Virus record (IMG/VR): IMGVR_UViG_3300047275_000458
Location: 1 to 58,660 of that record
Reading direction: 5' to 3' (one strand)
DNA length: 58,660 nt
From: a virus
Lineage: Duplodnaviria > Caudoviricetes
Positions 28,114 through 57,218 of this stretch are shown here, in pieces. Position 1 is the first letter of the stretch; each line of letters starts with the position of its first letter. The notes under the pieces were generated by a model. That model made no database searches, had not been told where the DNA came from, and saw only the letters and a program-made list of their open reading frames with translations. Position numbers and translations under genes: made by a program.

Positions 28114-31100
28114 ATGGCAATATATTTTGACGATAGTGGTGGTAGTGACGCTTTTAATCCTGCAGATTGGGGCGTTTCTACAAAACCTGCAAAACGTGGT
28201 GTTTTAGGTGCAGCCAACGACTATGTTATTAATGCCGCAAATCTTATATTAGGTGGTACTAAATCTATTGTTGACTTTGCTCAACCGGGAACCGAACTGG
28301 CTTCTCAAATTGAAGCATTAATACGCGAAGGCCAAGAAAAACAATCTGATGTAACAAAACGGGCTAAACAAGAACTTGGGCAATCCATCGAAGAAGGTGG
28401 GATGGAAGCCTTAAAAGGTGTTGGCAAATATGTTGTTCAGTCTCCTGGCCTGGCTATCTCCGAAGCAATTGGGTCGTTTGTTGTTCCCGGTATCGCTATT
28501 AAAGGTGCAGGACTATTAGGTCGGGCTACTGGTGCGGGTGAGCGTGCGATTGCGGCAGGCCGTGCTGCTGGTCCTTTACGTGCTGCTGACGAAGCCGCTC
28601 TTGCGGCTCGAGGTGTTCGGCCTTACGAAATAACGGCTGGTGTTGCTTCTGGTGCTGCACTTAGTGGCGGTGATGCGGCTGGTGATGCATATCAACAAGT
28701 CTACGAATCTCAAATTAATTTAGGGGTAAACCCTGATGAAGCAAAACGACTTGCGACAGAAGCAGCCCGCAAGGCTAGCATAGTCCCTGCTGTGATAGGT
28801 GGAGTGACCGGCATACTTGGTGCTGAAGCACAATTATTTAGCGGCGCAAAACGAAGTGGCTCAAGCATTCTAAAGTCTGCTGGGTCGGAAGCCCTTCAAG
28901 AAGCCGTTGAAGAAGGCTCAACTAAATTGTCTGCCAACCTTGCTGCTATGCAGTATGGCGTTGATACAACCCCCATGCGAGGCGTGGTGGGTGCGGCTGC
29001 TTTAGGCGGCGCGCTTGGTGGTATCACTGGTGGAGGTGTTGCGTTTGCTACACGTCGTCAATCTGGTAGTTTGTTGCAAGCCTCTAACGACAACCTTACT
29101 GGTAATTTAACTCCGGACGACGACGGTATTAAGTCTGCCATCAATGAAGATCGACAGATGTCGTTGTTCTCGGCTGAGGAACTGATGCCGCAAGTTGTAG
29201 CGCGGGAATCAGAATTGATTAACCCATACAACGTAGGTGGCTATGTCGGAGCGCAACAGGCTGGCTTGGATACGGGACTACAATTTACAAGTACCGGTGG
29301 ACAACAAAATATGGTATTTGGTGCTGGTCCTGTTCAGCAAATTCAAACGGGTACAGGTCAAGCGGCGGCTCCAGCAGCCCAAGCCACTCAACCGCAAGCG
29401 AAACCTACTGCGAGCGGACAGCAGACACCGCAGGTCGATCCGCAAATTCTTTCAGAAACCGGTCAGCGGTATGGACTAACTCAGTCACAAATGCCCGGAA
29501 CTGGCGCAGCCGTTGTTAATATTGGTGGACGTAATGTCTACGGTACTAATTCTGTTAAACAGTTTTTGACTGAGTTGACTATTGCCGACGAAGGTAAGTC
29601 CGATATTCAACGGCAAATGGAAGCCGCAGTATTTAAGTCTGGCACGATGTCTGTACAACCTACGATTACGGCTAAAGCCCTGTCGGCTGCTGCAACCAAG
29701 CAACTAGAGAAACTACAGATTAACGAAGCCGATTCGCTGGAAACGGCTGCACAGATTCTTAACGACCAGATTCGAGCATTGGGCGACGCCAATAAAAAAG
29801 CCACAGATAAAAATGTGGAAACATTGGCACGCACATACGAAGCGCTTACGGGGAGCGTATCTCCGGCATTTACTCAAATTTTAGAAGGAGCAACAAATGT
29901 ACAAAATGGACAAAAACAGCAAGTGTCTACCGGGGTGGGAGCAGTTTCAGTCGGTGGAGGAGCGCCAGCGGGCGGTACAGGACTTAATGTTCAACCCACA
30001 AACGTTCAATCCCAGCAACCAGGAAGCCAGCCTAGCGGACAGAACATCGTCCAAAATGTCCCCGGCGGAGAAGGTGGAGCACGGCCTGGAGGTGGTGGAC
30101 CCATCGACACCAATGTTTCTGTTGGCAGCGAAGCCGCGCCGTCGCAAGTAACAGAAGGCACTCCGACTGAAAAAGAAGACTTTGCCAAAAAGTTATTTGT
30201 TGACGTATTTGGCGAACGCGATGGTCTAATTGTTTACGATTTGTTAGAGGTCACTGGAAACCAATCTGTTATTGCGGCTAAGTACGATATTGATCGTACT
30301 GTGGTGTCTAAGATCAAAAACAAGTATTTTGAGTCCAACACTGGTAAACAGTCCAAAGCTCTGTGGTTTAAGCCTAAGTATCAGGCAGCGTTGAAAAACG
30401 AAGTCATTGCTCAAGGCAGGTCGTTACAAGATGTGTATACATTCTTGTCTAACGAGTCCGAAGCCCAGAAGGAAATGGAAGACCTGATTATTAAGGACTT
30501 CGAAGTAGAACCTGCAGTAGAAGGGGCGGAAGATACAACTCCTACATCGGCTGAAGAACAAGGCGCAATTGCTCCTGTCATGGGAGAAGGGCTTCTCGAA
30601 GACAAATCAGAAACTACAGCAGACGAGCGAGATACAAATCTGACGTTTGTGGGATCTGAGAAGGGCTTAAGCCAAACTAGCGATGTTAGTGAAAAAAGTA
30701 ACTGGCGTTCGTCCATAAAGAAAAACCGCAAGAACCTGAAAAATGTTAGCGATGCGCATTTACAGGATGCGGCTATGGCTGCGCTTGAGGGTAAAGTAGA
30801 CGATAAAACTTTGTTGGAAGATATTACTGCCGAACTTAAGCGACGTGAAACCGTTGCCCGTGCTAGCAAAGCTGGGCGCGAAACTATAGAAACGCAGGAG
30901 GAAGAAGATGCCGTTCAAGAGCCAAGCCCAGAAAAAGTGGATGTACGCAAACAAGCCGGAGATGGCAGAGCGGTGGCAAAAAGAGACACCGAAAAACAAG
31001 CCGTTGCCGAAGAAGATGAAGTCAGCGACGAACTCGCAACCCGCGAAGAAGACGCCGAAGATGCGTGGAACAGCCTAGTCACAAGTAAAGAAGTTGAAGC

Positions 31101-34100
31101 CCTTGGCTTGGCAGAGTGGGTCGAACTGTCTGAAGCCCAGCAAGCACTAGTCTTGCGTCTGGATGATCCGTCTACGCTAACCATGCGTAACGTTGAGAAG
31201 ATTCTTGCGCTTGAAGACGATACCCGCACTATTGACGTTGAAGCCCGTGAAGTTAGCCCGGGTGAGCGTCGTATGATTGAAAACGGAATAAAACAGCTTC
31301 CAAACACACAAGTTGCTACCCTAGAAAAACATTACGGGGCGAAGTCTGGAACAGCAGAGTTTATTAGCAAACTCGCTACTGATGTAACTAACTATATTAA
31401 CAAAGGCGCTGAGTCTGTTGCCGCTGCCATCCGTGGGATTATTAAGTCCATGGCAGAAGGTATGGTTGCTTTTGGCCTAGTATTTAACCCGGCTATTCAA
31501 TACAGTGGTTTTGACTATAACGTTGAAGCCATATACGAAAAAGCAAAAGAACAGAAAACGCAAGTACCAGCTAACGCTAAAGCCAAGATGTCTCCTCTGG
31601 CTCAGGCTGTGTACCGCGATATGGCTGCTACAGCCAAGAAAACCGGCAAGGGCTTTATGATTGCCGACAAACAAGCGGGTATGATCCACGCGTTTAACGC
31701 TGATGGCAGTCTACTAGTCCAAGACAGCGCTTTGTTTGGCAAAGATATCGGTGACAAAGTAACTACGTCTTCGTTCCAAGGTGGGCCAAAGATTACCCCC
31801 GCCGGGAAATTTACGCTTAAAGTTTCTAAAGATGAGAGTTATGCTGGCGGTTATGTGCTTGGCATGGAAGAAACGTACGATGCAGGCGAAGGCAGTTGGG
31901 TGGCTATCCACGCCGCATACTTAGGCAACACCGGTGAAAAACGCCTTGAGCGTTTAGCCAGTGGAGACGCCAAGGAAAAGCGTGTTAGTTATGGATGTAT
32001 TAATACTACTCACGACACATTCCTTAACAAGTTTAAGCCAAACCTCGATAAGTTTGATGGTGGTATGGTATTTGTGCTGCCCGAAGAAACAGTAAATATT
32101 GCCGCTGCTAAAACAGGCAAGGTTCAGTTTTCTAAAAAGGTAGCCGCTGGAGGTTCAAAAGCCTCAGACGTTCGGAAAAAACTTCGTAACTTTATTGGCG
32201 CAGAAAATGAAGCTCGGATGCAGGTGTATCAGAGTATTGACGAAATTCCTGTTGACATACAGAAAAAAGTTGAAAAAGCTTCTGGCGAAGCCATTACTTC
32301 GAATACGCAAGGATTTATTGTAGATCGGAAAGCATATCTAATTGCTGACAATATTAGCCCCGGAACTGAACGGGCTGTGTTTATGCACGAAGTTGGTTCC
32401 CACCTGGGTTTGGAAAATATCCTTACCGAAGAACAATTTGACAAGTTAGTAGACACTCTTCTTGAATGGTCTGGTCGGCAAGATGATTCTCTAGAATGTA
32501 CTTTAGCTACTAAAGCGTTGGTTCGAGTTATTGACGCTAACAGCACAGATGCGCAACGTAATAGTGAAATGGTTGCGTATTTTATTGAAGAAGCGCTGCT
32601 TGCTGGTGTCAACCCTAAAGCTGTTGCTGAAGGAACAGGGTTTGCGTCTTGGTTCCGTACACTATGGTCAGCGTTTAAGCAGGGTATTCGCAAACTGAAT
32701 TTGTTTAATCCAGACAAAATGAATGCCACAGATATTATTAATATGGCATACGGAGCAGCACGCTTGGAGATTGCGGGTACTTGGCACGGGACTGCTGCTG
32801 AGTTTCGCCGGTTTAATCATATGTATATGAGTACTGGTGAAGGGGCTCAAGCTTATGGCTGGGGAACGTACTTAGCGCAACGGTTTGGTATTGCTTACGA
32901 ATACATGACTTCTGATGTTAGTAGAAAAACAAGAACTGAATTTACTTGGCAAAATCCAGAAGCCGTTCAAGTTTATTTTGAAAATCATCCATTAACTAAC
33001 ACAAAAGCTAAAGAAAAAATTTACGATCTAAACACTCAAGGGCTTTTAGTTCAAAAAGGATATCCTATTGAGCCGGAAGATTTAGCACGAATGTATGTAA
33101 GTGGTCATTATTTCGACAGTGCTAGCATTTCTGCTAAGCCTTTGTGGGTTCCAGTTACTGTTAACGGCAAAACATATACCACAAAAGATTTACAGTGGTC
33201 AGAAAAACAAATTAAACCTGCTGGAACAATGCTTCGGGTAGATGTTAATGCTAAGCAAGACGAACTGCTTAACTGGGATATCTCTCTGGCTAAACAACCT
33301 AGTATCTTAAACAAACTTGAAAAAGTATTTACAGAAGAGCTAGAAGTAAATTACGGCTTACGGTCTTGGATTACTAACCAAATAACAAAGTCTTTGAATT
33401 TTTCAGATTTAACTGGGCAAGAGTTGTATTTAACTTTGCAAGAAATTATTAAAAATTACAACCTTGCTCGGTATTACAAGCAAGACATTAGTTTGGAACA
33501 GATGTTCTTTATTGATGCAATAGAAGAAAATGCAGCACTTAAAGTTCAAAAGTATGAAACTGATGAAGTTGTATCAACATTTTTAAATGGCATTGGTATT
33601 AAAGGTCTTAAATTTTTAGACGCTCGCAGCCGTAAAAAATCAAAATCTTTCTATATTCAAAAGCTAGAAGAAGCTGAGTCAATTATTGAAGATTTTGAAG
33701 CGTGGGATGGTAAAACTCCTCGCTCTTACCCTTCTTGGGCAAAAAATACTGAGAAGCAAGCAGAATATATTGCAGATCTCAAATATAAATTATCTCAGGC
33801 CCCAGAAGATTCTGAATTAACACGCAACCTTGTTGTGTTTAGCGACAAAAATATTGTACGCGTAGCATCTTTGCAAGGGGGCAGTCAACAGGAAGTTAAG
33901 TTTAGTATTCGCCCTCTTGACCGTGGCACAGTAGAGCGCAATATCCGCAAACTTCCTTCTGGGCTACAGGGGCCAACACGCTCAACGTTTATTTCCCTGG
34001 CAAATTTTGCCCGTAAGGGTATGGATTACGTCGCATTTACCCCGGTGATTATTGACCGTGCGGTTAAGGCTGGTCTGACTGCTGCCAACAAATACCTCCG

Positions 34101-36711
34101 TCTAAACCAAGAACGGGGTCAGATGGCAAAGCAGATGGAAGAAGATGTACAGCGTATTGTGGATATGTACGCCAACGTGCCTGCAGAAAACCGTGGCACG
34201 GGTGATCGTAGCGTAAACCGTTACATATTTGACTCCACCCGCCGTGGGGTATGGGGGTTCCAACCTACCAATCGCAGCGACAAAGTAGATGTTGACCCTG
34301 AGTTGTCAATTCGCTTTAAACGTCTATCTCCTGAAGCCCAAGCATTTATCCGTGCCGTATTTAAGCATGGCGATGACATGCTGGCGCTAAAAAAGAAAAC
34401 CGTCATGGAGTTTACAAACTCGGAGTACGACGCAGCCATCGAGCAAGCCAAGAAAGACGGCGACGCCAAACTAGAAGCCTCCCTGACGGCAGACAAAAAA
34501 GCTGACCTTAAGAAATTTGACAGCTTGTTTAAGTTGCGTGAGGGTATACCCTATGCTCCGATCAAGCGTATCGGTAAGTACGTAGTGATTGCCAAGTCAG
34601 CAGAATACCGACAGGCAGAGCGTGATGGTGATGCTAAAAAGTTGCGTGACCTTGAAAAAGATCCTGACCATTACCATGTCACATTCAAAGATACGGAAGC
34701 CCAGGCTCGTGCGCTGCAACAATCTTTGGTTGATGAAGGACATTTTGGCGGGGATGAGGCTGTAGAAATAGGTGAGCGCGATCAATACGAAAACGAGTTA
34801 TACGGCGGTAACAATATCCTGCAAGCCTTGACTAAACTGCGTTCACAGATTGACGCCCGGGCAAGTTCTGAAAAAGCTGATGAGCGTGCGGGTGCTGCCA
34901 CGATGCGTCGTATTGTAACGGACTTGTACTTAGAGTCTTTGGCAGAAGCCAGCGCTCGGAAAAACGAAATGCGTCGTAAGGGCGTATCTGGTGAAGTTGA
35001 TATGCTCCAGTCGTTTGGGCTACAAGGTGCTGCCGATGCGCGGTTTCTGTCCGCCCTCCAATATGATAAACAGACGCAAGATGCTATTCAAGAAATGCGT
35101 GGACAAGTACGCACAGGTGGTGGTGATAGGTTACGGAAGTCGGAGTTGTATAACGAACTGATGGCGCGGTATGCACAGACGTTAGACTTTGAACCCATGC
35201 CGGTCACTCAAAAGCTTAACCGATTAACCTCTGTATGGTTCTTGGCGACTAGTCCGGGATACTACCTACAAAACTTAACCCAGCCATACATGATGTCGTT
35301 ACCTTTGATGGCGGCAAAACATGAAATTGGTAAATCTTCGACGGCACTGTTTAAGGCATATACTGAACTGGGCGAAGTATTTAAGAGCGCCAAGTTGTTT
35401 GAGCAGCAGTTTGACTACAGTAAAGTGCCTGCTGATGTTCGCCAAGCCATTAAGACTTTGGTTGATCGAGGCCGTATTGATATTGGTATTGATACCGAAC
35501 TTGGCAACGCACGGATTGAAGGTGCTGGTGCATTTGAAGACCGCTGGAATAAAGTAGATAAAGGTCTACGGCTTGCTGTTCAGAAAGTAGAGATTCTAAA
35601 CCGTCTATCTACTGCGATTGCAGCCTATCGGTTAGAAATGGCAAAGTCTGGTAGCGCCGCTAAAGCCCTGCAGTATGCGGACGACATTCTTGTGGATACC
35701 CATGGCGACTACAGCGCGTTTGCTGCACCGCGAGCATTTAATACAAATATTGGTAAAGTTGCTCTCCAGTTCCGTAAGTTCCAGTTGATCCAGTTAAGCT
35801 TGATGTCAAAGCTAATTAAAGATGCCTACACAGGTAAAGATCGAGCCGTTGCCGTAAAAGCCCTAACTTACATCCTAGGTAACACGGCTGTTATGGCTGG
35901 TGTGCTTGGGTTGCCCGGTATGTCAGCCATTGCTTGGATACTTGGTCAGTTACTAGGCGATGACGACGAGCCGTTTATTCTTGAGAAAGAATTGCGGGAG
36001 TATATTGGGGACGAGGATCTTGCCAACATAATTACGCGTGGCGTACCTACAGTGGCGGGGGCAGACTTGTCGGGTAAGATTGGTATGGGAAATATGTTGT
36101 CAGTCTTACCGTTTACCGAGATTGACAAACTAAATGGTGAGAAAACTGCAGAGATTATTGGTACGTTGATAGCGGGCCCTGCTGGTGGATTGTTGGCCCG
36201 GGGTGCGGATGGCGCTGCATACATGGCTAACGGCGATTACTGGAAGGGTTTGGAGTTGATGACCCCGAAGGGTGTTGGGGATGCCATGAAGGCTTATCGT
36301 ATTGCGAATGAAGGTGTAACCAACAATCGTGGGGATGTGTTGTTACCGCCCGAAGAACTAGGCGATCTGGACACTATTTGGCGGGCGTTTGGTCTTTCCC
36401 CTGTTAAACAGACAGTGCGGTCTGCTAAGCAAGGGTTTAAAATAGACTACGAAGCAAAATACGAAGCTCAGTCTGGGGAAATTAAGAGAGACTATATTCG
36501 GGCAGTCAAGGAAAATGATAACGAGGCCAAAGAAGAGGCTCGTCAGAAATGGAAGAAACTGCAGGAAGCACGCAAGCGCAATGGCTTTAAAGTTCAGCCA
36601 TTGTCTGAGTTGTTGACTTCTCCAAGAGAGCAGCGTAAGCGTGAGCGTAAGACCGTAGGGGGTGTGCAGTTTGACACCGGATCACGTAGGTTTGTGGAAG
36701 GATTACAGTAA
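28114..36711 (+). CDS. Giant polyvalent internal virion protein (L,D-transpeptidase-like, metallopeptidase, ART-like and PLxRFG-like domains)
   Basis: IHAAY...SYGCIN; MHEVGSH; WHGT...TGEGAQAYGWGTY; YAPIKRIGKY. Confidence 0.8.
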   Translation: MAIYFDDSGGSDAFNPADWGVSTKPAKRGVLGAANDYVINAANLILGGTKSIVDFAQPGTELASQIEALIREGQEKQSDVTKRAKQELGQSIEEGGMEALKGVGKYVVQSPGLAISEAIGSFVVPGIAIKGAGLLGRATGAGERAIAAGRAAGPLRAADEAALAARGVRPYEITAGVASGAALSGGDAAGDAYQQVYESQINLGVNPDEAKRLATEAARKASIVPAVIGGVTGILGAEAQLFSGAKRSGSSILKSAGSEALQEAVEEGSTKLSANLAAMQYGVDTTPMRGVVGAAALGGALGGITGGGVAFATRRQSGSLLQASNDNLTGNLTPDDDGIKSAINEDRQMSLFSAEELMPQVVARESELINPYNVGGYVGAQQAGLDTGLQFTSTGGQQNMVFGAGPVQQIQTGTGQAAAPAAQATQPQAKPTASGQQTPQVDPQILSETGQRYGLTQSQMPGTGAAVVNIGGRNVYGTNSVKQFLTELTIADEGKSDIQRQMEAAVFKSGTMSVQPTITAKALSAAATKQLEKLQINEADSLETAAQILNDQIRALGDANKKATDKNVETLARTYEALTGSVSPAFTQILEGATNVQNGQKQQVSTGVGAVSVGGGAPAGGTGLNVQPTNVQSQQPGSQPSGQNIVQNVPGGEGGARPGGGGPIDTNVSVGSEAAPSQVTEGTPTEKEDFAKKLFVDVFGERDGLIVYDLLEVTGNQSVIAAKYDIDRTVVSKIKNKYFESNTGKQSKALWFKPKYQAALKNEVIAQGRSLQDVYTFLSNESEAQKEMEDLIIKDFEVEPAVEGAEDTTPTSAEEQGAIAPVMGEGLLEDKSETTADERDTNLTFVGSEKGLSQTSDVSEKSNWRSSIKKNRKNLKNVSDAHLQDAAMAALEGKVDDKTLLEDITAELKRRETVARASKAGRETIETQEEEDAVQEPSPEKVDVRKQAGDGRAVAKRDTEKQAVAEEDEVSDELATREEDAEDAWNSLVTSKEVEALGLAEWVELSEAQQALVLRLDDPSTLTMRNVEKILALEDDTRTIDVEAREVSPGERRMIENGIKQLPNTQVATLEKHYGAKSGTAEFISKLATDVTNYINKGAESVAAAIRGIIKSMAEGMVAFGLVFNPAIQYSGFDYNVEAIYEKAKEQKTQVPANAKAKMSPLAQAVYRDMAATAKKTGKGFMIADKQAGMIHAFNADGSLLVQDSALFGKDIGDKVTTSSFQGGPKITPAGKFTLKVSKDESYAGGYVLGMEETYDAGEGSWVAIHAAYLGNTGEKRLERLASGDAKEKRVSYGCINTTHDTFLNKFKPNLDKFDGGMVFVLPEETVNIAAAKTGKVQFSKKVAAGGSKASDVRKKLRNFIGAENEARMQVYQSIDEIPVDIQKKVEKASGEAITSNTQGFIVDRKAYLIADNISPGTERAVFMHEVGSHLGLENILTEEQFDKLVDTLLEWSGRQDDSLECTLATKALVRVIDANSTDAQRNSEMVAYFIEEALLAGVNPKAVAEGTGFASWFRTLWSAFKQGIRKLNLFNPDKMNATDIINMAYGAARLEIAGTWHGTAAEFRRFNHMYMSTGEGAQAYGWGTYLAQRFGIAYEYMTSDVSRKTRTEFTWQNPEAVQVYFENHPLTNTKAKEKIYDLNTQGLLVQKGYPIEPEDLARMYVSGHYFDSASISAKPLWVPVTVNGKTYTTKDLQWSEKQIKPAGTMLRVDVNAKQDELLNWDISLAKQPSILNKLEKVFTEELEVNYGLRSWITNQITKSLNFSDLTGQELYLTLQEIIKNYNLARYYKQDISLEQMFFIDAIEENAALKVQKYETDEVVSTFLNGIGIKGLKFLDARSRKKSKSFYIQKLEEAESIIEDFEAWDGKTPRSYPSWAKNTEKQAEYIADLKYKLSQAPEDSELTRNLVVFSDKNIVRVASLQGGSQQEVKFSIRPLDRGTVERNIRKLPSGLQGPTRSTFISLANFARKGMDYVAFTPVIIDRAVKAGLTAANKYLRLNQERGQMAKQMEEDVQRIVDMYANVPAENRGTGDRSVNRYIFDSTRRGVWGFQPTNRSDKVDVDPELSIRFKRLSPEAQAFIRAVFKHGDDMLALKKKTVMEFTNSEYDAAIEQAKKDGDAKLEASLTADKKADLKKFDSLFKLREGIPYAPIKRIGKYVVIAKSAEYRQAERDGDAKKLRDLEKDPDHYHVTFKDTEAQARALQQSLVDEGHFGGDEAVEIGERDQYENELYGGNNILQALTKLRSQIDARASSEKADERAGAATMRRIVTDLYLESLAEASARKNEMRRKGVSGEVDMLQSFGLQGAADARFLSALQYDKQTQDAIQEMRGQVRTGGGDRLRKSELYNELMARYAQTLDFEPMPVTQKLNRLTSVWFLATSPGYYLQNLTQPYMMSLPLMAAKHEIGKSSTALFKAYTELGEVFKSAKLFEQQFDYSKVPADVRQAIKTLVDRGRIDIGIDTELGNARIEGAGAFEDRWNKVDKGLRLAVQKVEILNRLSTAIAAYRLEMAKSGSAAKALQYADDILVDTHGDYSAFAAPRAFNTNIGKVALQFRKFQLIQLSLMSKLIKDAYTGKDRAVAVKALTYILGNTAVMAGVLGLPGMSAIAWILGQLLGDDDEPFILEKELREYIGDEDLANIITRGVPTVAGADLSGKIGMGNMLSVLPFTEIDKLNGEKTAEIIGTLIAGPAGGLLARGADGAAYMANGDYWKGLELMTPKGVGDAMKAYRIANEGVTNNRGDVLLPPEELGDLDTIWRAFGLSPVKQTVRSAKQGFKIDYEAKYEAQSGEIKRDYIRAVKENDNEAKEEARQKWKKLQEARKRNGFKVQPLSELLTSPREQRKRERKTVGGVQFDTGSRRFVEGLQ
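29897..30151 (+). CDS. Overprinted +1-frame protein (84 aa) inside the giant gene
   Basis: AAGGAG, 6 nt, ATG; the host frame is a low-complexity linker; ends AAKPRRRK. Confidence 0.55.
   Translation: MYKMDKNSKCLPGWEQFQSVEERQRAVQDLMFNPQTFNPSNQEASLADRTSSKMSPAEKVEHGLEVVDPSTPMFLLAAKPRRRK
30908..31078 (+). CDS. Overprinted +1-frame basic protein MPFKSQAQKKWMYANKPEMAERWQKETPK... (56 aa), not in the ORF track
   Basis: AGGAGG, 6 nt, ATG; resembles a small phage protein type I recall as free-standing (unverified). Confidence 0.75.
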   Translation: MPFKSQAQKKWMYANKPEMAERWQKETPKNKPLPKKMKSATNSQPAKKTPKMRGTA

Positions 36712-37587: not shown

Positions 37588-38526
37588 ATGACACAAGCAT
37601 TTAATTTATCACGTATTGCTGGTAATCTAAATACTTCGGGGCAATTAGATGCTACCGATGGTTTAAACGGTGTTCTTCCTATTGCTAACGGCGGTACAGG
37701 ATCTAGTACAGCCGCGTTTTCTGGCGCTAATATTACAGGCTTAAACGCTACTAACATTTCTAGCGGCGTATTAGCAGTAGCTAACGGCGGTACAGGATCT
37801 AGTACAGCAGCTTTCTCTGGCGCTAATATCACAGGCTTAGACGCTACTAACATTTCTGCTGGAACTTTAGCAGTAGCCCGTGGTGGCACAGGTGCGGCAA
37901 CATTAGATGCCAACAACGTAATCCTCGGTAACGGAACATCAGCGGTTCAGTTCGTAGCACCCGGTACAAACGGTAATGTGCTTACATCAAACGGAACGAC
38001 TTGGACTTCTGCCGCCGCTGGTGGGGGTGGTGGTTCTTTTGTTTACTTAGCATCTGCAACTGCGTCAGCGTCTGTTGTAGATTTTACTGGTTTAGATACA
38101 TCTACTTATTTTTCATTTTTAATTACTTTTACTGATGTAAGGGGATCTGCTTTTTCTTGTCGGTTGTATCCGGGTGGAACTTTATCAACTGCCGCCCAAT
38201 ATGCTTATGCATATGTGTATGCAGATGCTTCTGGCTCTGCTGGCTCGGGTGCTTCTGGTCAAACAGTGCTAACTCTATCCACTACAAATACAACTACGGC
38301 TAATATAGGAATAACTGGTTATCTACAGTTTTTTCCTGCTGGAGGCTATTCTTCTATTGTTTCAAACTTTACAGTCATCGGCAGCACAGGTGGATCTATT
38401 ACTAACTTCTCGACATGCGGATCCATTATGAATGCAACCGCTGCTAATGGTATTCGTTTTGGGGGCGCTAGCATGGGAAACTTAACTGGTGGAAACTTTA
38501 AACTTTATGGGCTAAAGGCTAGTTAA
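37588..38526 (+). CDS. Second tail fibre protein
   Basis: LAVANGGTG repeats, PGT.GNVLTSNGT.W.S, FKLYG C-terminus; GGAGG SD. Confidence 0.75.
   Translation: MTQAFNLSRIAGNLNTSGQLDATDGLNGVLPIANGGTGSSTAAFSGANITGLNATNISSGVLAVANGGTGSSTAAFSGANITGLDATNISAGTLAVARGGTGAATLDANNVILGNGTSAVQFVAPGTNGNVLTSNGTTWTSAAAGGGGGSFVYLASATASASVVDFTGLDTSTYFSFLITFTDVRGSAFSCRLYPGGTLSTAAQYAYAYVYADASGSAGSGASGQTVLTLSTTNTTTANIGITGYLQFFPAGGYSSIVSNFTVIGSTGGSITNFSTCGSIMNATAANGIRFGGASMGNLTGGNFKLYGLKAS
37669..37893 (+). repeat. 96-bp (32-aa) tandem repeat in the tail fibre, about 2.3 copies
   Basis: GCTAACGGCGGTACAGGATCTAGTACAGC at 37684 and 37780. Confidence 0.85.
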
Positions 38527-38528
38527 TC

Positions 38529-38810
38529 ATGGAAAAACTTTATAAAACCATAAACGGCGGTGAGATAGTAGAGTGTTCCCAAGAAGAACAAGATCAGTAC
38601 GCTATTGATTTGATTCATTACGAAACAGTAACTTTGCCAATAGAAATACGGCAACAAAGAAACGCTTTACTAACCGCCTCTGATTGGACACAGGCGGCTG
38701 ACGTTCCTCAAGCAATTAAAGACGCATGGGCTACCTATCGCCAAGCGCTACGTAATGTGCCCCAGCAAGCAGGGTTTCCTACAAACGTAACGTGGCCCCA
38801 AAAGCCATAA
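38529..38810 (+). CDS. Tail fibre assembly chaperone
   Basis: R..RN.LL..SDWTQ..D, W..YRQALR.VPQQ.GFP..V.WP.KP. Confidence 0.85.
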   Translation: MEKLYKTINGGEIVECSQEEQDQYAIDLIHYETVTLPIEIRQQRNALLTASDWTQAADVPQAIKDAWATYRQALRNVPQQAGFPTNVTWPQKP

Positions 38811-38840
38811 AAAACCCCCCGACAGTTGCCCGTCGGGGGT
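38809..38840 (-). terminator. Rho-independent terminator at the convergence point (U-tract on the - strand)
   Basis: CCCCCGAC/GTCGGGGG stem preceded by A6 on the + strand. Confidence 0.8.
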
Positions 38841-38890
38841 AAGTCACCACTTGAGGAGAATGACCATGAGCAAGAAACTGCCAGAGGTCA
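38809..38890 (-). ncRNA. Candidate anti-RBS small RNA
   Basis: Possible promoter TAGCCA, 18 nt, TATTAT (38925-38896); terminator; 14-nt complement of the AAA+ gene RBS. Confidence 0.45.
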
Positions 38891-38903
38891 TTGCAATAAT
38901 ACC

Positions 38904-41843
38904 TTAAGTATTTACTGTTTGGCTACCTTCAAGTTTAGATCCCGTATGTACTGTAAGTTTTGGCGTCTGAACACCCTGTGCCTCCAGTTTCACCATGTCT
39001 ATCTCTACACACCGATGCTGACCGGCTGAGACTTTAGTACCCCTACCCACGTTGAACTTATCCTTAATCTCCTTGGCAACTCCTGCTGCCGAGGCATAAT
39101 CCATAAGCGACTTGTAGTCCACGCGATGTTGCAAGCACCAATCTGAGATTTCCTTGCGGATTAAAAACAGTTTTCCCGAGATCGGATCGTTCTTAGTGGC
39201 GTTGGATCCCATGATGTACCGACCAGCGGGAGGCCCGCCATAGATTCTGTTACAGTCTTCAGGGCCACGACCATCTCGCCCATCTCGATACTCTGTAGTA
39301 ACCATAACCCGAGCAGACAACTCGTTTAGCATACGGTTGAACGCTTCCTCAGATGTAATGGAGTTTTGTTCCTGAACGTTACTTGCCAACTCAAAGAATA
39401 AAGTTTTGATAAATGCATACACGCCTTCGGAATCAAAAGCAGTAATCTTTAGTTCATTACAGATCTCCAGTGCTACCATAGCCGTCATGGCTTGACTGCG
39501 GTAAAAGCGATACTTCACATCAGGAATATCTTCCTGTAGACGTTTACCCCAGTGACCAAGGCGCTTCATAACGTCGTCAAGATTCTGTACCACATATTGT
39601 ACAAATGCTTCGCCAGCCACACCCTTATTGAGGGCGATTCGTTTCATGGCTACATCTACCTCAGCACCAATATTTGGTAGTGGTCTACGATCTACGTCGA
39701 CCTGAATCATACGCACAGCCTCCGCCTCGGTGTTGCTCTGACGTGAAGCTAACAGGGAATGTAGATTTGTATTAGCAGTCAGAAAGACAGTCATCTCCCA
39801 AGTCTGAGACTCGGCAAACCGCACTCCGCTACCTTTACCCGTTGTTAATCGTTGCCGTTCTTGACCCGAACTAACTGCGTAGCACAACTTGGATAGCGTC
39901 TCAGCCTCGATGTTTGTTACTTCGTCGTACAGTACTGGGATGTGGTTATGCACCCCGATGTGTGCGTACAAAGCGTTGATCGTAGCCTGCTCTGCTTTTA
40001 TGGCAATCTTGTCTGCGTCACCAAATGCGTAAAGACCTGAATAGCACGTTGTGGTTTTGCCCTTACCAGACTTACTGCTGATGATCGCAAATACAATACC
40101 TTTATAAAGAGTGTCGCAAAACGGTGTAAGGATTGAACCAAATGTCGAAGCCACGATGTACTGCATGTGCTCCATGCCGGGACGGGAATACAAAAAGTTA
40201 ATTGCGTCTGCATACACCTCTAACTTACCGTTCGGGGTTGGAAACTCTTGAATCTTATCCTCGGCGTAACTCCCAACCAAAACTTTCCGAAGTGCGCCAT
40301 CCCGATGGTATAGCCGATCACCAAGCAAGAACGACTGATACTCATTCTTCCATCCAAAGTTTGTGTATGTATTTAGTTCCTCTGCTTCTCGTTTAAGTTT
40401 CTCGAGCGAGTCACGGAGGTACGCTGTCATGTGCATAGCAGAATCCTTGTGATTCGTTGGTATTAATTCGTACTTGGCAAGAGCCTCAATGGTTTTCTGA
40501 TTTGATGCTAAAACTTGTGTATCAATATCAAAATCTCGAACGCGGTTATCAGGCAAGTGCAAACGCAAGCCAACGCTAAACTCACCATTCTCTTTACAGA
40601 TACGGTGAATGGGGTAGAACAGATTGTTGGAGAACACAAACGCATGCATGATGTCGTCTTTGTCCTTCATGTATCTGCTCATCACATTGTTTTCGTGCCC
40701 GTACCCTTTAGGTAATTCTGGAACCTGAAAGGTAATTGTCTTGCCTTCCACTGAGGCGACCACTTCAGAAACTTCCGGTTCCGGTTCTTTCCTCCCAAGC
40801 ACCAACGGCGTTTTAATTTTGCCTTTATGAGGACACTCCATACACCCCGCCGGATTGCACTTGGAGAAGAACTCACATGTTGTTGGGGGTGAGCCCCAAG
40901 TATCGAATTTCGTAGTAACGTCGTTTTGCGTGTGCCCGGTTTCCTCACGTCGTTCGCTCCATTTGTGCGCTAAGTCAATACCTTCGTCACAGTATTTAAT
41001 AATTCCAATAACACCGCGCCAATGTTCGTAACCAACGTCACCTTGCGTATCCCGCATCAGCGCAACCTGTGAGCATTTGTCTGCTACAAGATCAGCCGAG
41101 GCAGGCACATTCTGTATTTGGGGTAGATGTGCAATGAGGTCATCGTTAAGATTACTTACTGGCTTAGGCGCCTGGACATCAACTTGAAACTTAAGCTGTG
41201 CATCTTTGAGCAACTTAGCAAACTGCCGAGGATCAACAACAACCACCGACGTTTTCATACTTACGGGTTTGGTCGAATCGTATTTCTTATTAGTTGCTCC
41301 CGCAGGGCGTAGGATGGAAGCAAAGTCTGCCGTTCTTGTAGGGTCAACCCGAAAGTTTAAGTATGTGCAAAGAGCCTTTAAGACCTCTGCTAGTTTGACC
41401 CATGTATCCGAACGGATACACTTTTCTAAAGTCCAATAGCCGTGAATGCCATAGCCTGAATCTACAATCATTGGCATGGGCAAACCAGTTTCAAGGCAAA
41501 ACTTCCCTAACTCTGAGACTGCTTCTTTCTTGGTTAGATAGCCTTCACCGCTAGCAAACTTGTCTTCGCCGCAATCAATGTCTACCCAAAATGATTTGGC
41601 TTTGAGCCAATTAGCAGGCTTGCGATACTTCTTCTTACCATCAATTTCTACAAATTCTGATTGGTAGGCAGCGCACGCATGGTAAACCTGTACTGGTTTT
41701 TTATCCCAGTACGCAACAGACTTCGCCATTTCCTCAAGTGAGGTGTATGGTCTGTGTGCTACCCGCCCATCAGGATTAATGAGGGCAAGATATTTAACGC
41801 CATCCTCCGGGAGGATAGCCCGTAAAAACTCAAGGGTGTCCAT
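38904..41843 (-). CDS. Primase-helicase (primase, PriCT-2-like, Zn site, DUF927-like helicase)
   Basis: FWVDID, SG.G.H.YW, YEHW, C...C..CPH, SGKGKTT Walker A, LYDE. Confidence 0.85.
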   Translation of the reverse strand: MDTLEFLRAILPEDGVKYLALINPDGRVAHRPYTSLEEMAKSVAYWDKKPVQVYHACAAYQSEFVEIDGKKKYRKPANWLKAKSFWVDIDCGEDKFASGEGYLTKKEAVSELGKFCLETGLPMPMIVDSGYGIHGYWTLEKCIRSDTWVKLAEVLKALCTYLNFRVDPTRTADFASILRPAGATNKKYDSTKPVSMKTSVVVVDPRQFAKLLKDAQLKFQVDVQAPKPVSNLNDDLIAHLPQIQNVPASADLVADKCSQVALMRDTQGDVGYEHWRGVIGIIKYCDEGIDLAHKWSERREETGHTQNDVTTKFDTWGSPPTTCEFFSKCNPAGCMECPHKGKIKTPLVLGRKEPEPEVSEVVASVEGKTITFQVPELPKGYGHENNVMSRYMKDKDDIMHAFVFSNNLFYPIHRICKENGEFSVGLRLHLPDNRVRDFDIDTQVLASNQKTIEALAKYELIPTNHKDSAMHMTAYLRDSLEKLKREAEELNTYTNFGWKNEYQSFLLGDRLYHRDGALRKVLVGSYAEDKIQEFPTPNGKLEVYADAINFLYSRPGMEHMQYIVASTFGSILTPFCDTLYKGIVFAIISSKSGKGKTTTCYSGLYAFGDADKIAIKAEQATINALYAHIGVHNHIPVLYDEVTNIEAETLSKLCYAVSSGQERQRLTTGKGSGVRFAESQTWEMTVFLTANTNLHSLLASRQSNTEAEAVRMIQVDVDRRPLPNIGAEVDVAMKRIALNKGVAGEAFVQYVVQNLDDVMKRLGHWGKRLQEDIPDVKYRFYRSQAMTAMVALEICNELKITAFDSEGVYAFIKTLFFELASNVQEQNSITSEEAFNRMLNELSARVMVTTEYRDGRDGRGPEDCNRIYGGPPAGRYIMGSNATKNDPISGKLFLIRKEISDWCLQHRVDYKSLMDYASAAGVAKEIKDKFNVGRGTKVSAGQHRCVEIDMVKLEAQGVQTPKLTVHTGSKLEGSQTVNT

Positions 41844-42114: not shown

Positions 42115-42189
42115 TGGTAGCAGGGGCGGGGATCGAACCCGCGATCTTCAGAATATGAACCTGACGAGATACCACTTCTCCACCCTGCG
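42115..42189 (-). tRNA. tRNA-Met(CAT), initiator-like
   Basis: Cloverleaf: acceptor CGCAGGG/CCCTGCT with C1xU72 mismatch, loop TTCATAT, GGTTCGATCC T-arm, encoded CCA. Confidence 0.9.
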
Positions 42190-43110: not shown

Positions 43111-43494
43111 TTACGCCGAACGGCGGATGTTTACAACTCTTTCTTCACGCCAATTAATACCCGGCGGAAGGTCTGCGTGTGCGTCTTTATACTGCTCAAC
43201 TGCGGTCTTACTTGCACGCACTTCAAGCAAAGGCCACTCGTCTTTACTGCGAACAAACTCCATGAAAGCTTCTCGATCCGCTACACTAGCTGATGAGCGT
43301 GTAGATGTGTATGCTGTACCAAACTCTGTTTTAACAGAATCCATACCAGTTTGGTCAAAAACTTCTAGCAACTTTACTTCTATTTTTTCCATCACTTTTT
43401 CAAGTTGGGAAGCCTTCATGTCGTAGTCGGCTTTTAGTTGAGCCTTACGATCACGCGCTTCAATGTACTTTGCAACTAAATCTGATAATTTCAT
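43111..43494 (-). CDS. Conserved replication-region coiled-coil protein
   Basis: YI..RD, SVKT..GT, LPPG pattern; AGGAG SD. Confidence 0.7.
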   Translation of the reverse strand: MKLSDLVAKYIEARDRKAQLKADYDMKASQLEKVMEKIEVKLLEVFDQTGMDSVKTEFGTAYTSTRSSASVADREAFMEFVRSKDEWPLLEVRASKTAVEQYKDAHADLPPGINWREERVVNIRRSA

Positions 43495-46503: not shown

Positions 46504-46538
46504 GGGTTCTCCAAGTGGTTATGCGCCAAACCGTGTTT

Positions 46539-49966: not shown

Positions 49967-50620
49967 TTATATATCAGCACCGGACATGCGTGCAATGACT
50001 GCTGCTGCTTGCACTTCTTCGGTGTTGATGGTAGCCAAGAAGGCGGCGGCGGTTGATTCAGTTCTTTCCCCTTTGGCAGCCTTACGCTCAACTCGGTCTA
50101 TAAATTCGCTAGGTATGTACACTTTGAGGTCAGGCCAAAGTTTGAGCGCCTCGTTTAGTGACTTACAGTTATTCAAGAATTGCCTAACTTGGGTTTCGAC
50201 CTTTCCCCAACGCTCAGCAATTTCAGTACGCATCTTAGCCTTACTTACATGGTCGTTGATTAACTCCGTGGGCATTTCCTCACCCTCTTCAAAGTGAACA
50301 TACACATCAGGATAATTAGACCTATACTGCGGAGGAAGTAGAACTTCTTTTTCGCTGCGACATTGCAACTTAAAGTCCGGCCCGCTAAAGTGAAAGTCAA
50401 CAGCAGTATTTTTATGTAGCCAAGACGCGGGCATCTCGGAAATTAAATGATGTTTATTCTCCCATACTTTCTGAATAAACCAACGCTCGTTGCCAGTTAC
50501 ATCCAGCGTTATACGTGAAACCTCTTGGCCTAATGAAGCTTGTAACTCGTGGTCACGCATATAACGAATATGATCACGTACTTCGTTGACAAGGTTTTGT
50601 GAAATTCCTACGAATGCCAT
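49967..50620 (-). CDS. Hypothetical protein (Nmad5-like C-terminal motif)
   Basis: SLNEALKLWP.L..YIP; GAGGAG SD. Confidence 0.55.
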   Translation of the reverse strand: MAFVGISQNLVNEVRDHIRYMRDHELQASLGQEVSRITLDVTGNERWFIQKVWENKHHLISEMPASWLHKNTAVDFHFSGPDFKLQCRSEKEVLLPPQYRSNYPDVYVHFEEGEEMPTELINDHVSKAKMRTEIAERWGKVETQVRQFLNNCKSLNEALKLWPDLKVYIPSEFIDRVERKAAKGERTESTAAAFLATINTEEVQAAAVIARMSGADI

Positions 50621-50622: not shown

Positions 50623-50853
50623 TTACTCTCCTCTATTAAGAATGATTACTTCATTGATTGTTTCAATCCACACTTTAGCCCCACACGACAGGGGGTTATC
50701 GGGCCTGTAAACTATTTTGCATGGGCCCAGAATCTCAACTTCGTTGCCATACTCGTTACTCTTGTATGTTTTAACTGTTAACACAGGTTTGCGGTCAGGT
50801 GACTTGGCGTTGTGCTTGATGTTGTGTTGGTTAACATGCACGATAGTCTTCAT
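50623..50853 (-). CDS. Conserved-type small phage protein
   Basis: HVNQH.I, TVK, GP..IVY.PD.PLSCGA.VWIET. Confidence 0.75.
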   Translation of the reverse strand: MKTIVHVNQHNIKHNAKSPDRKPVLTVKTYKSNEYGNEVEILGPCKIVYRPDNPLSCGAKVWIETINEVIILNRGE

Positions 50854-50858
50854 GGTTA

Positions 50859-51455
50859 TTACTCCAATTTAAAATCTAATTTAAATTTGATCTTGCCTCC
50901 AAACTGCACAGTTGTAAGTGCTTGATCTAACTTTGGTTTCATTGCCGCACTCAGGTATTCTTGAATTCGCTTAAGCACTCCGCTTTGTTGCACGCTTTCC
51001 CAAGTGGCTGAACTCATGCCGTAGAAATAAATGCTTCCTTCTTCTTTGCTACAGTTTCTTAAGAGTCGTTGAACATACCAATCGTCTCCGGTTTCCATGC
51101 GTCGTGCGACTGCATCTGCGTACAAAACATTGTATATCTCGTCGTAGAGTTGCTCGTTGTCTAGCCCATTAATATTAATTCTGTCTTTGTCTACATCGCT
51201 CCAAGGTATTTCATAAAACTTGCACACATGGTCATACAACTGCCTAGCCTTGCTAGAGTACCCACCTACGGGGTATGTGGGGTAGTTTTCTAACCCCGAT
51301 GCAATCTTATTTCTAACTCGGTCTGTTACTTTTTCAAAGTCTATAGTAACCTCCGTCGTTGCGCCCATCATCTTTGATATGCGGGCTACATCCCATTGAT
51401 TGTCAACTCGTTTAGACTTTACTTCTACGAATTTTTTGCTCTTGTTGGTGTCCAT
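50859..51455 (-). CDS. Hypothetical protein
   Basis: 198 aa, TAATG-coupled to the VWA gene. Confidence 0.7.
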   Translation of the reverse strand: MDTNKSKKFVEVKSKRVDNQWDVARISKMMGATTEVTIDFEKVTDRVRNKIASGLENYPTYPVGGYSSKARQLYDHVCKFYEIPWSDVDKDRININGLDNEQLYDEIYNVLYADAVARRMETGDDWYVQRLLRNCSKEEGSIYFYGMSSATWESVQQSGVLKRIQEYLSAAMKPKLDQALTTVQFGGKIKFKLDFKLE

Positions 51456-52597: not shown

Positions 52598-52808
52598 CTG
52601 TAAGTTCTCCATCTTCGTGGTTAACAAAGGAAGCACCGCCTCGTTTATCTTTAACTATTTTGGCAGTGCCTATGATTAGGCCAACAAACAAGCGTTGTGC
52701 AATAAGCACAAACTTATTAGCCTCTCTTAAATGGTGCTGATAATACACGGCGATGAGCGTTGCACCTAACGCCCACACCAACAGAAACAACTCAGCCATA
52801 CTAAACAT
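52548..52808 (-). CDS. Small membrane protein
   Basis: Two hydrophobic segments. Confidence 0.55.
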   Translation of the reverse strand: MFSMAELFLLVWALGATLIAVYYQHHLREANKFVLIAQRLFVGLIIGTAKIVKDKRGGASFVNHEDGELTDEIRIEVGQGESTNSP

Positions 52809-52810
52809 AC

Positions 52811-53710: not shown

Positions 53711-53721
53711 AGTTCACTCTC

Positions 53722-54237: not shown

Positions 54238-54238
54238 A

Positions 54239-55222: not shown

Positions 55223-55243
55223 ATGGTCATTCTCCTAGTTATA

Positions 55244-56916: not shown

Positions 56917-57144
56917 TTAACGGCCTCCCTTGTGTGATGAGTTGAGGTTAAGTAACAGACTTTTATCTGTAACGACAATGTAGTTAGACTTGGGCATGGG
57001 GACAATCGTGTGCTTGACTGACTGCGCCTGCTCCTCACCGCATGGCATGCAGGTGTGGTATCCCATTTTCCAACGGAGGTATGGGACTTTGTTGAAGTGG
57101 CAATGTGTGCATAGATACACACGATCTTCTTCGCGTAGTTCCAT
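56917..57144 (-). CDS. Small zinc-finger protein
   Basis: C..C ... R...GY.TC..CGE; TAATG start at 57144. Confidence 0.7.
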   Translation of the reverse strand: MELREEDRVYLCTHCHFNKVPYLRWKMGYHTCMPCGEEQAQSVKHTIVPMPKSNYIVVTDKSLLLNLNSSHKGGR

Positions 57145-57218
57145 TAGAAGTCTCCAAGATAGAGGTAACAGAGACCAACGAAGCCTGCAAGAATGACAAA
57201 TGCATCGAGTAGGGTCAT
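57144..57218 (-). CDS. 24-aa hydrophobic peptide MTLLDAFVILAGFVGLCYLYLGDF
   Basis: GGAG SD, TAATG coupling to the next gene. Confidence 0.55.
   Translation of the reverse strand: MTLLDAFVILAGFVGLCYLYLGDF

Follow-up and report, generated by a model that had tools for sequence, protein, structure and literature searches.

A conserved element in the 3'UTR of a phage primase mRNA is a candidate antisense regulator of early-gene translation

Known anti-Shine-Dalgarno and antisense RNAs compared with the phage locus

The icaR mRNA of Staphylococcus aureus carries in its 3'UTR a pyrimidine-rich anti-Shine-Dalgarno (anti-SD) motif that pairs with the SD, whereby initiation of translation is blocked and a substrate for RNase III is formed, and this pairing may work in cis or in trans (PMC3868564). 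From that account the 3'UTR anti-SD mechanism of the icaR type is established in bacteria (PMC3868564). The locus described here resembles icaR, as portrayed in that paper, in that both have a pyrimidine anti-SD motif in the 3'UTR of an mRNA. However, icaR is bacterial, has its motif 260 nt beyond the stop codon and directs it at the SD of the same gene, whereas the present element is phage-borne, lies just 5' of a terminator and has as its proposed partners other genes, which lie as far as 16 kb upstream. A self-interaction of the icaR type was considered for the phage and rejected, as the translation initiation region (TIR) of the primase gene itself was among the top 2 matches of the element in 0 of 17 genomes and ranked 74th of 77 TIRs in the window, by which we mean the whole stretch of 58,660 nucleotides that was analysed.

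In enterobacteria, CpxQ, SroC, DapZ and MicL are sRNAs derived from 3'UTRs, which have a conserved seed upstream of the parental terminator and TIRs as their targets, and they are demonstrated RNA species that need Hfq and RNase E processing or an internal promoter. The phage element is like them in that its seed adjoins the parental intrinsic terminator, is conserved and would target TIRs, and it differs in being a candidate predicted from sequence. [quoted passage not shown] C4 comes from the same operon as the genes it represses (PMC8198154), and the phage element would share with it, so far as that source describes C4, the property of being a phage-encoded antisense RNA in one operon with its targets; C4, however, is found at the beginning of its operon and has its role in lysogenic immunity, whereas the element stands at the 3' end of an operon in an apparently lytic replication module. 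When the region 38600-39100 was searched against Rfam at E <= 10, 8 matches were returned, none of which was C4 (RF01695) or isrK and none of which reached its gathering score. The best Rfam resemblance, both for the window (38809-38866, 27.9 bits) and for the related locus L129 (25.9 bits), was to RF02278 (Betaproteobacteria toxic small RNA), and since these scores lie under the gathering score of 50 the element is not a member of that family. As described in PMC4603805, RF02278 RNAs are free-standing chromosomal sRNAs whose function is given as unknown; they are like the element in being short RNAs in which a terminator hairpin comes after a 5' UCUCCU motif and unlike it in that the phage element lies in the 3'UTR of a primase mRNA. 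The literature on phage sRNAs, UTR-derived RNAs and anti-SD repression, as far as our partial coverage of it extends, describes no phage 3'UTR anti-SD element. We lean, by a small amount, towards regarding the element as a variant of known 3'UTR base-pairing regulation that would be new for a phage.

Layout, conservation and strand of the element

The primase/helicase-like gene (38904-41843, - strand) is the last gene of the replication arm and encodes 979 aa with a DUF927 domain, as judged from the open reading frame and from profile matches to phrog_1139 (DNA primase, 6.4e-11), phrog_25314 and Pfam DUF927 (2.6e-16). Its nearest cultured relatives are distant, with 27% identity to the primase of Pseudomonas phage Rollin and 22% to those of Rhizobium RHph phages, and the nearest cultured DNA polymerases are those of the Rhizobium RHph phages (38%) and KPP25 (37%), while a tail-fibre query gave mosaic matches only. 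A DNA search with 38300-39400 found no match among cultured phages, and the Rollin primase has no 3'UTR because overlapping genes come after it.

The element (38809-38906, - strand) consists of the primase stop codon, an outer stem P1, a hairpin P2, an unpaired pyrimidine core and an intrinsic terminator, and its predicted fold has an energy of -38.3 kcal/mol (z = -4.4 compared to shuffles). In the minimum free energy structure the 5' arm of stem P1 (38895-38906) contains the primase stop UAA (38906-38904) and a -10-like TATTAT, and it faces a 3' arm at 38840-38851 that reads AGUGGU ... CUUA; this stem is also predicted for clade B, where both partners of a U-A pair are changed to give G-C, as read by eye. 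Hairpin P2 (38859-38892) is predicted to form between AAUGACC (38892-38886) and GGUCAUU (38865-38859), as the initial annotation had anticipated when it proposed that AAUGACC folds back, and its 20-nt loop holds CAUG (38868-38865). The anti-SD core CUCCUCA (38852-38858) is unpaired in the predicted fold, and a pyrimidine core is present in 36 of the 37 distinct elements. The Rho-independent terminator (38809-38839) that had been noticed on this strand is indeed there and strong: its stem (38839-38830 with 38825-38816) has 10 pairs, 8 of them G-C, followed by G and U6, and it is the strongest terminator-like site across the whole - arm. The element thus lies between a stop codon (38904-38906) and the intrinsic terminator of the same mRNA (38816-38839 plus T6), as a 3'UTR regulator would, and by its sequence context it is the 3'UTR of the primase mRNA.

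The initial annotation had instead proposed an sRNA with its own promoter, TAGCCA-18-TATTAT, and this proposal found no support. The promoter is a 9/12 match, and a local scan gave 2 such sites when 2.0 were expected and a scan of the whole - arm gave 18 when 27.6 were expected, these scans covering promoters of the sigma-70 type. The match is thus at chance level, and its -10 lies within the predicted stem P1, which starts at the primase stop; that P1 includes the stop codon argues against the internal promoter.

The 3'UTR was found to be near-identical in all 6 relatives whose contigs reach the element (primase 95-99% identical in aa), the contig of relative L002, known from early protein-based scans, stopping short of it at window position 38879. 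In 3 of these 6 (L087-L089) the terminator stem is replaced by a different hairpin and the UTR is retained. At a primase identity of 42-59% the order of stop codon, hairpin, pyrimidine core and terminator was seen in 43 of 45 loci; of the other two, L128 has the layout with an atypical terminator and L124 is cut by the contig end. The gene calls and starts behind these counts and behind the TIR comparisons below came from a crude caller and the clades were assigned by eye, and the counts of genomes are not independent because the genomes are related. Among the 40 variants listed for the contigs of X19, X23, X3 and X18, for which there are 157 further variants, none falls within 38811-38903 or 55223-55236, and the sequencing runs listed for the region include no RNA run. 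The stretch of about 95 nt from stop codon to terminator is a conserved structured element.

The structure also bears on the strand that is functional. All 23 of the sequences from clades A, B, C and C' retain P2. In close relatives the AA of P2 is changed to GG or UG, which yields G.U wobbles, and all non-Watson-Crick pairs of the hairpin are G.U on the primase-sense strand; at P2 position 4, clade C has a C-G to U-A double change. When predicted pairs were counted over the sequences, 86% of cells were paired, a level reached by 0 of 500 shuffles and compared to 19-64% in slid controls, and both sides were changed in 9 cells (again 0 of 500 shuffles). For 34 of 36 sequences, the fold of the sense strand had greater stability than that of the antisense strand. 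RNAalifold on a 22-sequence MAFFT alignment recovered 4 terminator pairs and nothing more. Wobble pairs and fold energies thus favour the primase-sense (-) strand.

The same data bear on the possibility that the element acts as DNA where the two genome arms meet, for example as a protein-binding or recombination site, in which CATG and the flanking repeats would be read as DNA. CATG is palindromic and invariant in clades A, B and C, and the DNA of close relatives diverges right after the terminator T-run, as expected of a module junction. Against this, CATG is missing in clade D and altogether in 14 of 37 elements, the junction at which the DNA diverges falls outside the element, and stem covariation with G.U wobbles is a signature of RNA, so we regard a DNA site as highly improbable.

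The + strand contains a 13-codon ORF, MSKKLPEVIAIIP (38866-38907), preceded by the SD AGGAG, which is the mirror image of the anti-TIR and probably not a gene. If it were the functional strand, the tiny ORF would be translated, for instance to load ribosomes or to control antisense read-through RNA, and its likeness to other TIRs would come from common rules or from duplication. The terminator hairpin has no T-run on the + strand, so late transcripts would read through it and meet a real SD and ATG; SD and ATG are properly spaced in 24 of the 37 distinct elements; a 22-nt pattern scan found these 22 nt in an unrelated viral contig, where they form a genuine gene start; and the few variable sites of the ORF in close relatives include two synonymous third positions. 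However, 4 more of the 37 elements have only GTG or TTG and 9 have no start codon, and different clades have unrelated peptides (MSKKLPEVIAIIP, MAVLAPT, MTISGAI...), so that the conserved frame, conserved start and related peptide by which a small protein or leader peptide is recognised were not found. On this strand the G.U pairs become A.C mismatches and the folds are weaker in the 34 of 36 sequences mentioned, and in L122, L153 and L159, whose downstream gene is co-directional, the element is still present. The + strand peptide gene, which the initial annotation had offered as an alternative, is disfavoured by these data, and we consider a functional + strand quite unlikely.

Complementarity to translation initiation regions

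In the window, AGGAGAATGACCAT occurs in exactly two copies, at 38854-38867 (+) and 55223-55236 (-), and thus a - strand RNA from 38867 to 38854, AUGGUCAUUCUCCU, would be perfectly complementary to the ATPase mRNA, which bears out the exact 14-nt complement that had been reported for this RBS. The proposed main target (55223-55236, - strand) comprises the SD and spacer, positions -16 to -3, of the mRNA of a MoxR-like AAA+ ATPase (gene 54239-55222, 327 aa, start ATG at 55222-55220), whose family matches are phrog_1297 and AAA_5, the latter with 19.4 bits and so short of the cut-off of 22. The 24 nt before this ATG are identical in relatives L091 and L092, and L091 has 9 differences, counted by eye, within the 36 nt upstream of them. 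An inverted repeat of this length as such is what chance would give, because the window genome holds 16 non-palindromic exact inverted repeats of at least 14 nt; what is unusual is that both copies are SD-plus-start contexts. Among 2926 pairs of real TIRs in the window genome the longest shared word was 13 nt (1 pair) and the next 12 nt (1 pair). The score of the element was 14 with TIRs of its own genome and 13-13.5 with those of unrelated clades (rank p ~0.03). The cofold ddG of element and ATPase TIR was -11.5 compared to a mean of -7.5 and a lowest value of -11.9 in shuffled controls, and it is not beyond the controls because half of the 14 nt (7 of 14) is sequestered in P2. The case that can be made from the window genome alone is marginal.

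A rival explanation must be weighed here, that the element is merely a structured mRNA 3' end serving exonuclease protection or termination, with a likeness to TIRs that arises from composition and chance. It gains from the ddG lying inside the control range and from the commonness of 14-nt inverted repeats, as it does from the terminator being the strongest of the - arm. It gains also from the anti-SD core, whose mean duplex energy with the SD consensus was -7.6 compared to -6.4 for shuffles, no stronger than composition predicts, and from cross-clade scores of up to 13-16. By the duplex energies of 28-nt seeds with TIRs, own genomes could not be told apart from foreign ones, since an SD plus AUG of whatever origin pairs with any anti-TIR.

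What goes against this rival is the comparison of own with foreign genomes by local score. At a score of at least 14 there were 6 matches among 934 own-genome TIRs and 1 among 7980 cross-clade TIRs, and at a score of at least 13.5 there were 8 of 934 and 8 of 7980, respectively, with 45 of 36761 for real TIR-TIR pairs within genomes. All 8 own-genome matches at the lower threshold were to genes on the primase strand (8 of 456, compared to 0 of 478 late genes), which also speaks against the + strand reading. For 8 clade representatives, the Fisher p of a rank test was 8e-4. Two orthologous genes recurred as best matches in several clades: the ATPase TIR ranked first or second in 7 of the 13 own genomes and in 7 of 176 cross-clade comparisons, and the TIR of a 127-aa Gam/gp157-like gene in 7 of 16 and 17 of 222, respectively. 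The DNA polymerase TIR, like that of the primase, was in the top 2 in none of the 17 genomes, and the ATPase TIR is unmatched in clades B, D and E, where its ranks were 44, 32, 72, 5, 13 and 40. No one target is universal across clades. In G001 of clade B, the complement of the UTR shares no word of at least 12 nt with the genome. In G008 it is the helicase TIR that the UTR matches, over 12+10 nt; the cofold ddG is -34 kcal/mol, and no value lower than -15 was obtained in 30 shuffled controls. In some clade B and D TIRs an upstream ACTAAC complements a conserved GUUAG, in an order that is not collinear with SD pairing.

Compensatory changes between seed and target, which had been suggested as something to look for in relatives, are seen in the helix between the UTR and the ATPase TIR in clade C: it is GAGGA-UCCUC in G009, G010 and G025, GAGAA-UCUC in G011 and G028, and GAUGA-UCAUC in G013. 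G012 has one G.U in this helix and G025 one change that is not compensatory. The compensation in the intermolecular helix goes against a mere 3' end, and in G011, as worked out by hand, it would come at the cost of the corresponding intramolecular pair. TIR complementarity is thus kept or co-varies in relatives, with a target that differs between clades. Taking both sides together, we find a purely structural 3' end with fortuitous TIR likeness unlikely.

The other targets that had been proposed in the window fare less well. The exonuclease TIR (ACCACTTGGAGAA-CCC-ATG; 46507-46519, - strand) does have the bulged match, 6+7 bp with a 2-nt bulge, and ranks 4th of 77, but in none of 17 genomes was it among the two best matches, and it is doubtful as a conserved target. 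A relative of about 86% identity has 2 substitutions in the 13 target positions and the seed is unchanged in that identity class, although it is not established that both belong to one lineage because the contigs differ. The partial match at the start at 57218, in the TIR (57215-57230, - strand) of a 24-codon hydrophobic ORF (57144-57218), is present as GGAGAAT plus CCATGA (7+6) and weak. Of the silencing of several early mRNAs that was originally proposed, the part that is supported is an anti-RBS element predicted to pair with the ATPase TIR, and the exonuclease as a conserved target and the match at 57218 are not supported.

A proposed mechanism and what it would mean

A plausible explanation, which we favour slightly, is that the element is a 3'UTR-borne antisense regulator of early-gene translation. 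The primase mRNA would carry the regulatory RNA in its 3'UTR and may also release it through processing. Read backwards, the element would be the mirror image of a TIR, with an anti-start, a spacer and an anti-SD, and it would pair with TIRs of early and replication genes on the same strand, its main partner in the window phage being the MoxR-like AAA+ ATPase with 14 bp over the SD. The sequence features, the conservation, the structural strand bias, the own-genome complementarity and the covariation are observations. From them we infer an accumulation of the RNA, its pairing in vivo, whether in trans or, inside one long transcript, in cis, and repression as the outcome: the pairing would block ribosome binding and possibly form a substrate for RNase III, and early genes would be turned off once transcription arrives at the end of the replication operon.

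A more specific picture, which we put forward tentatively as possible rather than probable, is that a family of uncultured freshwater phages uses an 'operon-end timer', a programmable TIR-mirror 3'UTR that co-evolves with upstream TIRs and is neutralised by late transcripts. Its partners, the MoxR-like ATPase, the Gam/gp157-like protein and the helicase, would be silenced only after the whole replication arm has been transcribed, and the late convergent transcripts, which pass the terminator because it works in one direction only and which are complementary to the whole element, would later neutralise it.

To our knowledge little has been mapped of the regulatory RNAs in lytic phages, and the 3'UTR-borne regulators that we know of come almost exclusively from a few model bacteria. 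The element is conserved over a broad clade of uncultured phages with a complementarity that tracks the phage's own gene starts, and its intermolecular covariation offers ready compensatory pairs. It also illustrates that complementarity in raw sequence can reveal real regulators if it is checked against relatives. If the proposed regulation is true, these phages would have an RNA-only feedback by which the completion of early transcription leads to the shut-off of early translation.

The convergent junction and its relatives

The window is a complete virus record of 58,660 bp with direct terminal repeats, in which the + strand carries the structural genes as far as a 93-aa tail-fibre assembly gene ending at 38810 and the - strand carries the early and replication genes, which begin near 58.3 kb and end with a 979-aa primase/helicase-like gene (41843-38904). 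The primase 3' UTR (38809-38906, -) sits in the 93 nt separating these two convergent arms. The cultured phages nearest by DNA polymerase are distant (Rhizobium RHph_TM3_14A group, 38% identity; Pseudomonas KPP25, 37%), and the metagenomes whose DNA contains the region are from freshwater, lake, aquaculture and drinking-water. When six metagenome contigs with 95-99% identical primase that reach the region were compared, the UTR was almost unchanged and the seed (RNA of 38867-38854) identical in all six, the terminator hairpin differed from that of the window in three, and similarity ended directly after the T-run in all six. Three loci with 99% identical primase (L085, L086 and L090) have another last gene in the structural arm and diverge completely right after the T-run at 38809-38815, which marks the terminator as a module-exchange junction.

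A primase profile search gave 80 loci, and the downstream sequence was inspected in the 62 whose frame reaches the stop codon. At 42-59% primase identity, 43 of 45 loci had a common layout of stop codon, about 10-20 nt, a hairpin, a pyrimidine core that reads CUCC, UCCU or UUCC, another 10-20 nt or so, a G+C-rich terminator hairpin and a U-run; the remaining two have an atypical terminator (L128) or are ended by the contig edge (L124). At 39% identity or less, the next gene begins straight away in most of the 17 loci, and one (L153) has a short pyrimidine core and a terminator. Counting the window and its close relatives there are 37 distinct elements, of which 36 have the pyrimidine core and 23 have CATG; their opposite strand has an SD (Shine-Dalgarno) with ATG in 24/37 and no start whatever in 9/37.

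Elsewhere in the window, two replication-arm ORFs flank a tRNA-Met (CAT) gene (42115-42189, -); a high-depth 80-nt contig of sequencing run X19 matches the window only there and, because it has 8 differences, is probably the tRNA of another organism. In two DNA runs of separate studies (X3 and X18), contigs skip 233 bases at 50635-50869, which removes most of a 76-aa ORF (50623-50853), and this is therefore a natural deletion variant. A match to a DarB-like antirestriction PHROG (1.5e-63) covers the C-terminal 870 residues of the 2865-aa ORF at 28114-36711 (+), which may encode a giant virion-borne protein. At 51455-55222 (-) a DUF2201 metallopeptidase/VWA-like protein is encoded two genes after the MoxR-like AAA+ ATPase; MoxR-VWA is a usual gene pairing, found here in a phage replication arm.

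Strand and fold of the 3' UTR

On the primase-sense strand the hairpin P2 (38859-38892, -; arms AAUGACC/GGUCAUU) adjoins the pyrimidine core on its 5' side, has CAUG in its loop and is preserved in 23/23 sequences of clades A, B, C and C'. All its non-Watson-Crick pairs are G.U on this strand (A.C on the opposite one), and in clade C position 4 is C-G in five sequences and U-A in seven. In a MAFFT alignment of the elements, 86% of P2 cells were paired and nine cells had changes on both sides, each matched by 0/500 shuffles, and slid controls gave 19-64% paired cells; this test used five P2 pairs chosen by the analyst, and the rows of clade A and L139/L144, out of register, were counted as unpaired. 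The pre-terminator part folded better in sense than in antisense in 34 of 36 sequences (mean -11.2 and -8.2 kcal/mol), the exceptions being L122, which was opposite, and L121, which was equal through a parsing failure. This bias is supportive and not decisive for the choice of strand because a G+U-rich strand gains wobble pairs through composition alone. On the same MAFFT alignment, in which the arms of different clades are out of line with each other, RNAalifold for that reason gave no more than 4 pairs, all in the terminator.

In the predicted fold of the window, CUCCUCA (38858-38852) is unpaired, the GGUCAUU of the seed is locked in P2, and an outer stem beginning at the stop codon takes in the -10 box of the promoter (TAGCCA-18-TATTAT) proposed in the initial annotation. 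For clade B, too, an outer stem of this kind is predicted, and one of its pairs is U-A to G-C changed on both sides when L104 is compared with L106 (read by eye). The promoter itself is a 9/12 match, a count at or below shuffle expectation. The proposed - strand terminator was borne out, no other site of the arm being as strongly terminator-like as the hairpin at 38839-38816 with its T6. Of the two origins suggested earlier, an sRNA or a primase 3' UTR-derived RNA, the latter is supported and a primary transcript from that promoter is not; because P2 pairs on the sense strand and the outer stem covers the -10 box, the RNA appears to belong to the primase message, as its 3' end or as a product of it.

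Complementarity to early-gene TIRs

All sequence statements of the initial annotation proved correct. The 14-nt complementarity reported earlier was reproduced, with exactly two occurrences, 38854-38867 (+) and 55223-55236 (-), the latter at -16 to -3 relative to the ATG of the 327-aa MoxR-like AAA+ ATPase. The window genome holds 16 non-palindromic inverted exact repeats of at least 14 nt, and the match is less significant than its appearance suggests. What is unusual is its SD/start context: the + strand copy is itself an SD, spacer and ATG, and none of 2926 pairs of real TIRs (translation initiation regions) in this genome has a common word longer than 13 nt. The longest common word, of 13 nt (GGAGATTTCTTAA), occurs in the TIRs of two structural genes at 11351 and 14772 (+), which may be paralogous. 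The 22 nt of window 38856-38877 also form a true gene start (MSKNEVAAKK...) in an otherwise unrelated viral contig (L084, 1477-1498), and thus SD+start words can recur by chance or convergence. The secondary matches were also found, at the exonuclease TIR (6+7 bp with a 2-nt bulge) and at the 57218 gene start (7+6), which begins a 24-codon ORF. The exonuclease is unsupported as a target because an approximately 86% relative has 2 changes in 13 site positions, one wobble-compatible and one breaking, which is about the neutral rate. The 24-codon hydrophobic ORF (57144-57218, -; peptide MTLLDAFVILAGFVGLCYLYLGDF) has a good SD, is among the earliest genes and may encode a small membrane protein.

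With 16 further virus records, each UTR, cut before its terminator and reverse-complemented, was aligned to every TIR (-40..+8), genes being called by a crude ORF-plus-SD rule with approximate starts. Scores of at least 13.5 were obtained for 8/934 own-genome and 8/7980 cross-clade TIRs, and of at least 14 for 6/934 versus 1/7980, counts that are inflated by relatedness of the genomes; all eight own-genome matches of at least 13.5 fell among the 456 primase-strand genes. Within-genome pairs of real TIRs scored at least 13.5 in 45/36,761, which makes the element several-fold more similar to an early TIR of its own genome than TIRs are to one another. A conservative rank test of the own maximum against cross-clade maxima (8 clades, one genome each) gave Fisher p = 8e-4, and the window by itself p ~0.03.

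The ATPase TIR was in the top two in 7/13 own genomes (the window, five of clade C and G017) and 7/176 cross-clade comparisons, and that of a 127-aa Gam/gp157-like gene (window 43111-43494) in 7/16 (G006, G008, G014, G017-G020) and 17/222. The TIRs of DNA polymerase, the primase itself and the exonuclease were in the top two in 0/17 own genomes each, and in 4/234, 10/234 and 5/234 cross-clade. In this ranking the ATPase match was not found in clades B, D and E, and in G001 no word of at least 12 nt is common to UTR and genome. The G008 UTR matches its helicase TIR over 12+10 nt (cofold ddG -34 kcal/mol; lowest shuffled control -15) and, with 4 mismatches in 24 nt, its Gam-like TIR (-25 kcal/mol; lowest control -14). 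The anti-SD strength of the element is close to composition expectation, and the window's own ATPase pairing, with a cofold ddG of -11.5 that is inside the shuffled-control range once P2 opening is charged, is thermodynamically unimpressive. In clades B and D (G001, G006, G007, G014, G015; loci L099-L101, L182-L187, L206-L211), the ATPase and the orthologue of window gene 49967-50620 each have ACTAAC 2-8 nt before the SD; this motif could pair with GUUAG, the most conserved UTR word, but its order does not run collinearly with the SD pairing.

The clade C helix between UTR and ATPase TIR takes up 16-18 nt of the TIR, comprising the SD and 11-12 nt upstream, and one pair of this helix is altered on both sides: UTR/TIR is GAGGA/UCCUC in G009, G010 and G025, GAGAA/UCUC in G011 and G028 and GAUGA/UCAUC in G013, and G012 has G.U at this pair. 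The G011 change keeps the intermolecular pair and would break an alternative intramolecular mini-hairpin (worked out by hand), and G025 has one further, uncompensated change within the helix. In L091 and L092 (87% aa identity) the 24 nt before the ATPase ATG are identical to the window, and the 36 nt further upstream in L091 have 9 differences (counted by eye). Compensatory change between seed and target, to be looked for in relatives according to the initial annotation, is thus seen in the clade C pair, and the window's own clade offers conservation only.

Proposed role and known regulators

From these sequence comparisons we propose that the primase 3' UTR may act as an anti-TIR, with CAU in a loop, CUCC in an unpaired tract, TIR-like spacing and lineage-specific flanks, which would pair with TIRs of early genes on the same strand, in trans or inside one long transcript, and would occlude their SD. 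Because it is transcribed last, the element would set the moment at which early translation is shut off. Since the + strand of the terminator lacks a U-run, one may speculate that late read-through RNA could sponge the element.

3' UTR-derived sRNAs are a known class of regulators, which the phage element resembles. In Rfam the element gave RF02278 at 27.9 bits against a gathering threshold of 50, and anti-hemB, PsrR1 and SorX also below threshold; these resemblances are all to anti-SD sRNAs, and the element belongs to no curated family. SD occlusion by a 3' UTR has been demonstrated for icaR (PMC3868564), and the same is proposed here; however, the icaR type is defined by self-pairing, which is not seen for the phage element, its own primase TIR being in the top two in 0/17. 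P1 C4 (PMC8198154) is an RNA that shares an operon with the genes it targets, as is likewise proposed here. The literature searched, of which coverage was partial, yielded no account of a phage element of this type. The phage 3' UTR anti-TIR element would be an apparently undescribed version of known 3' UTR-type regulation.
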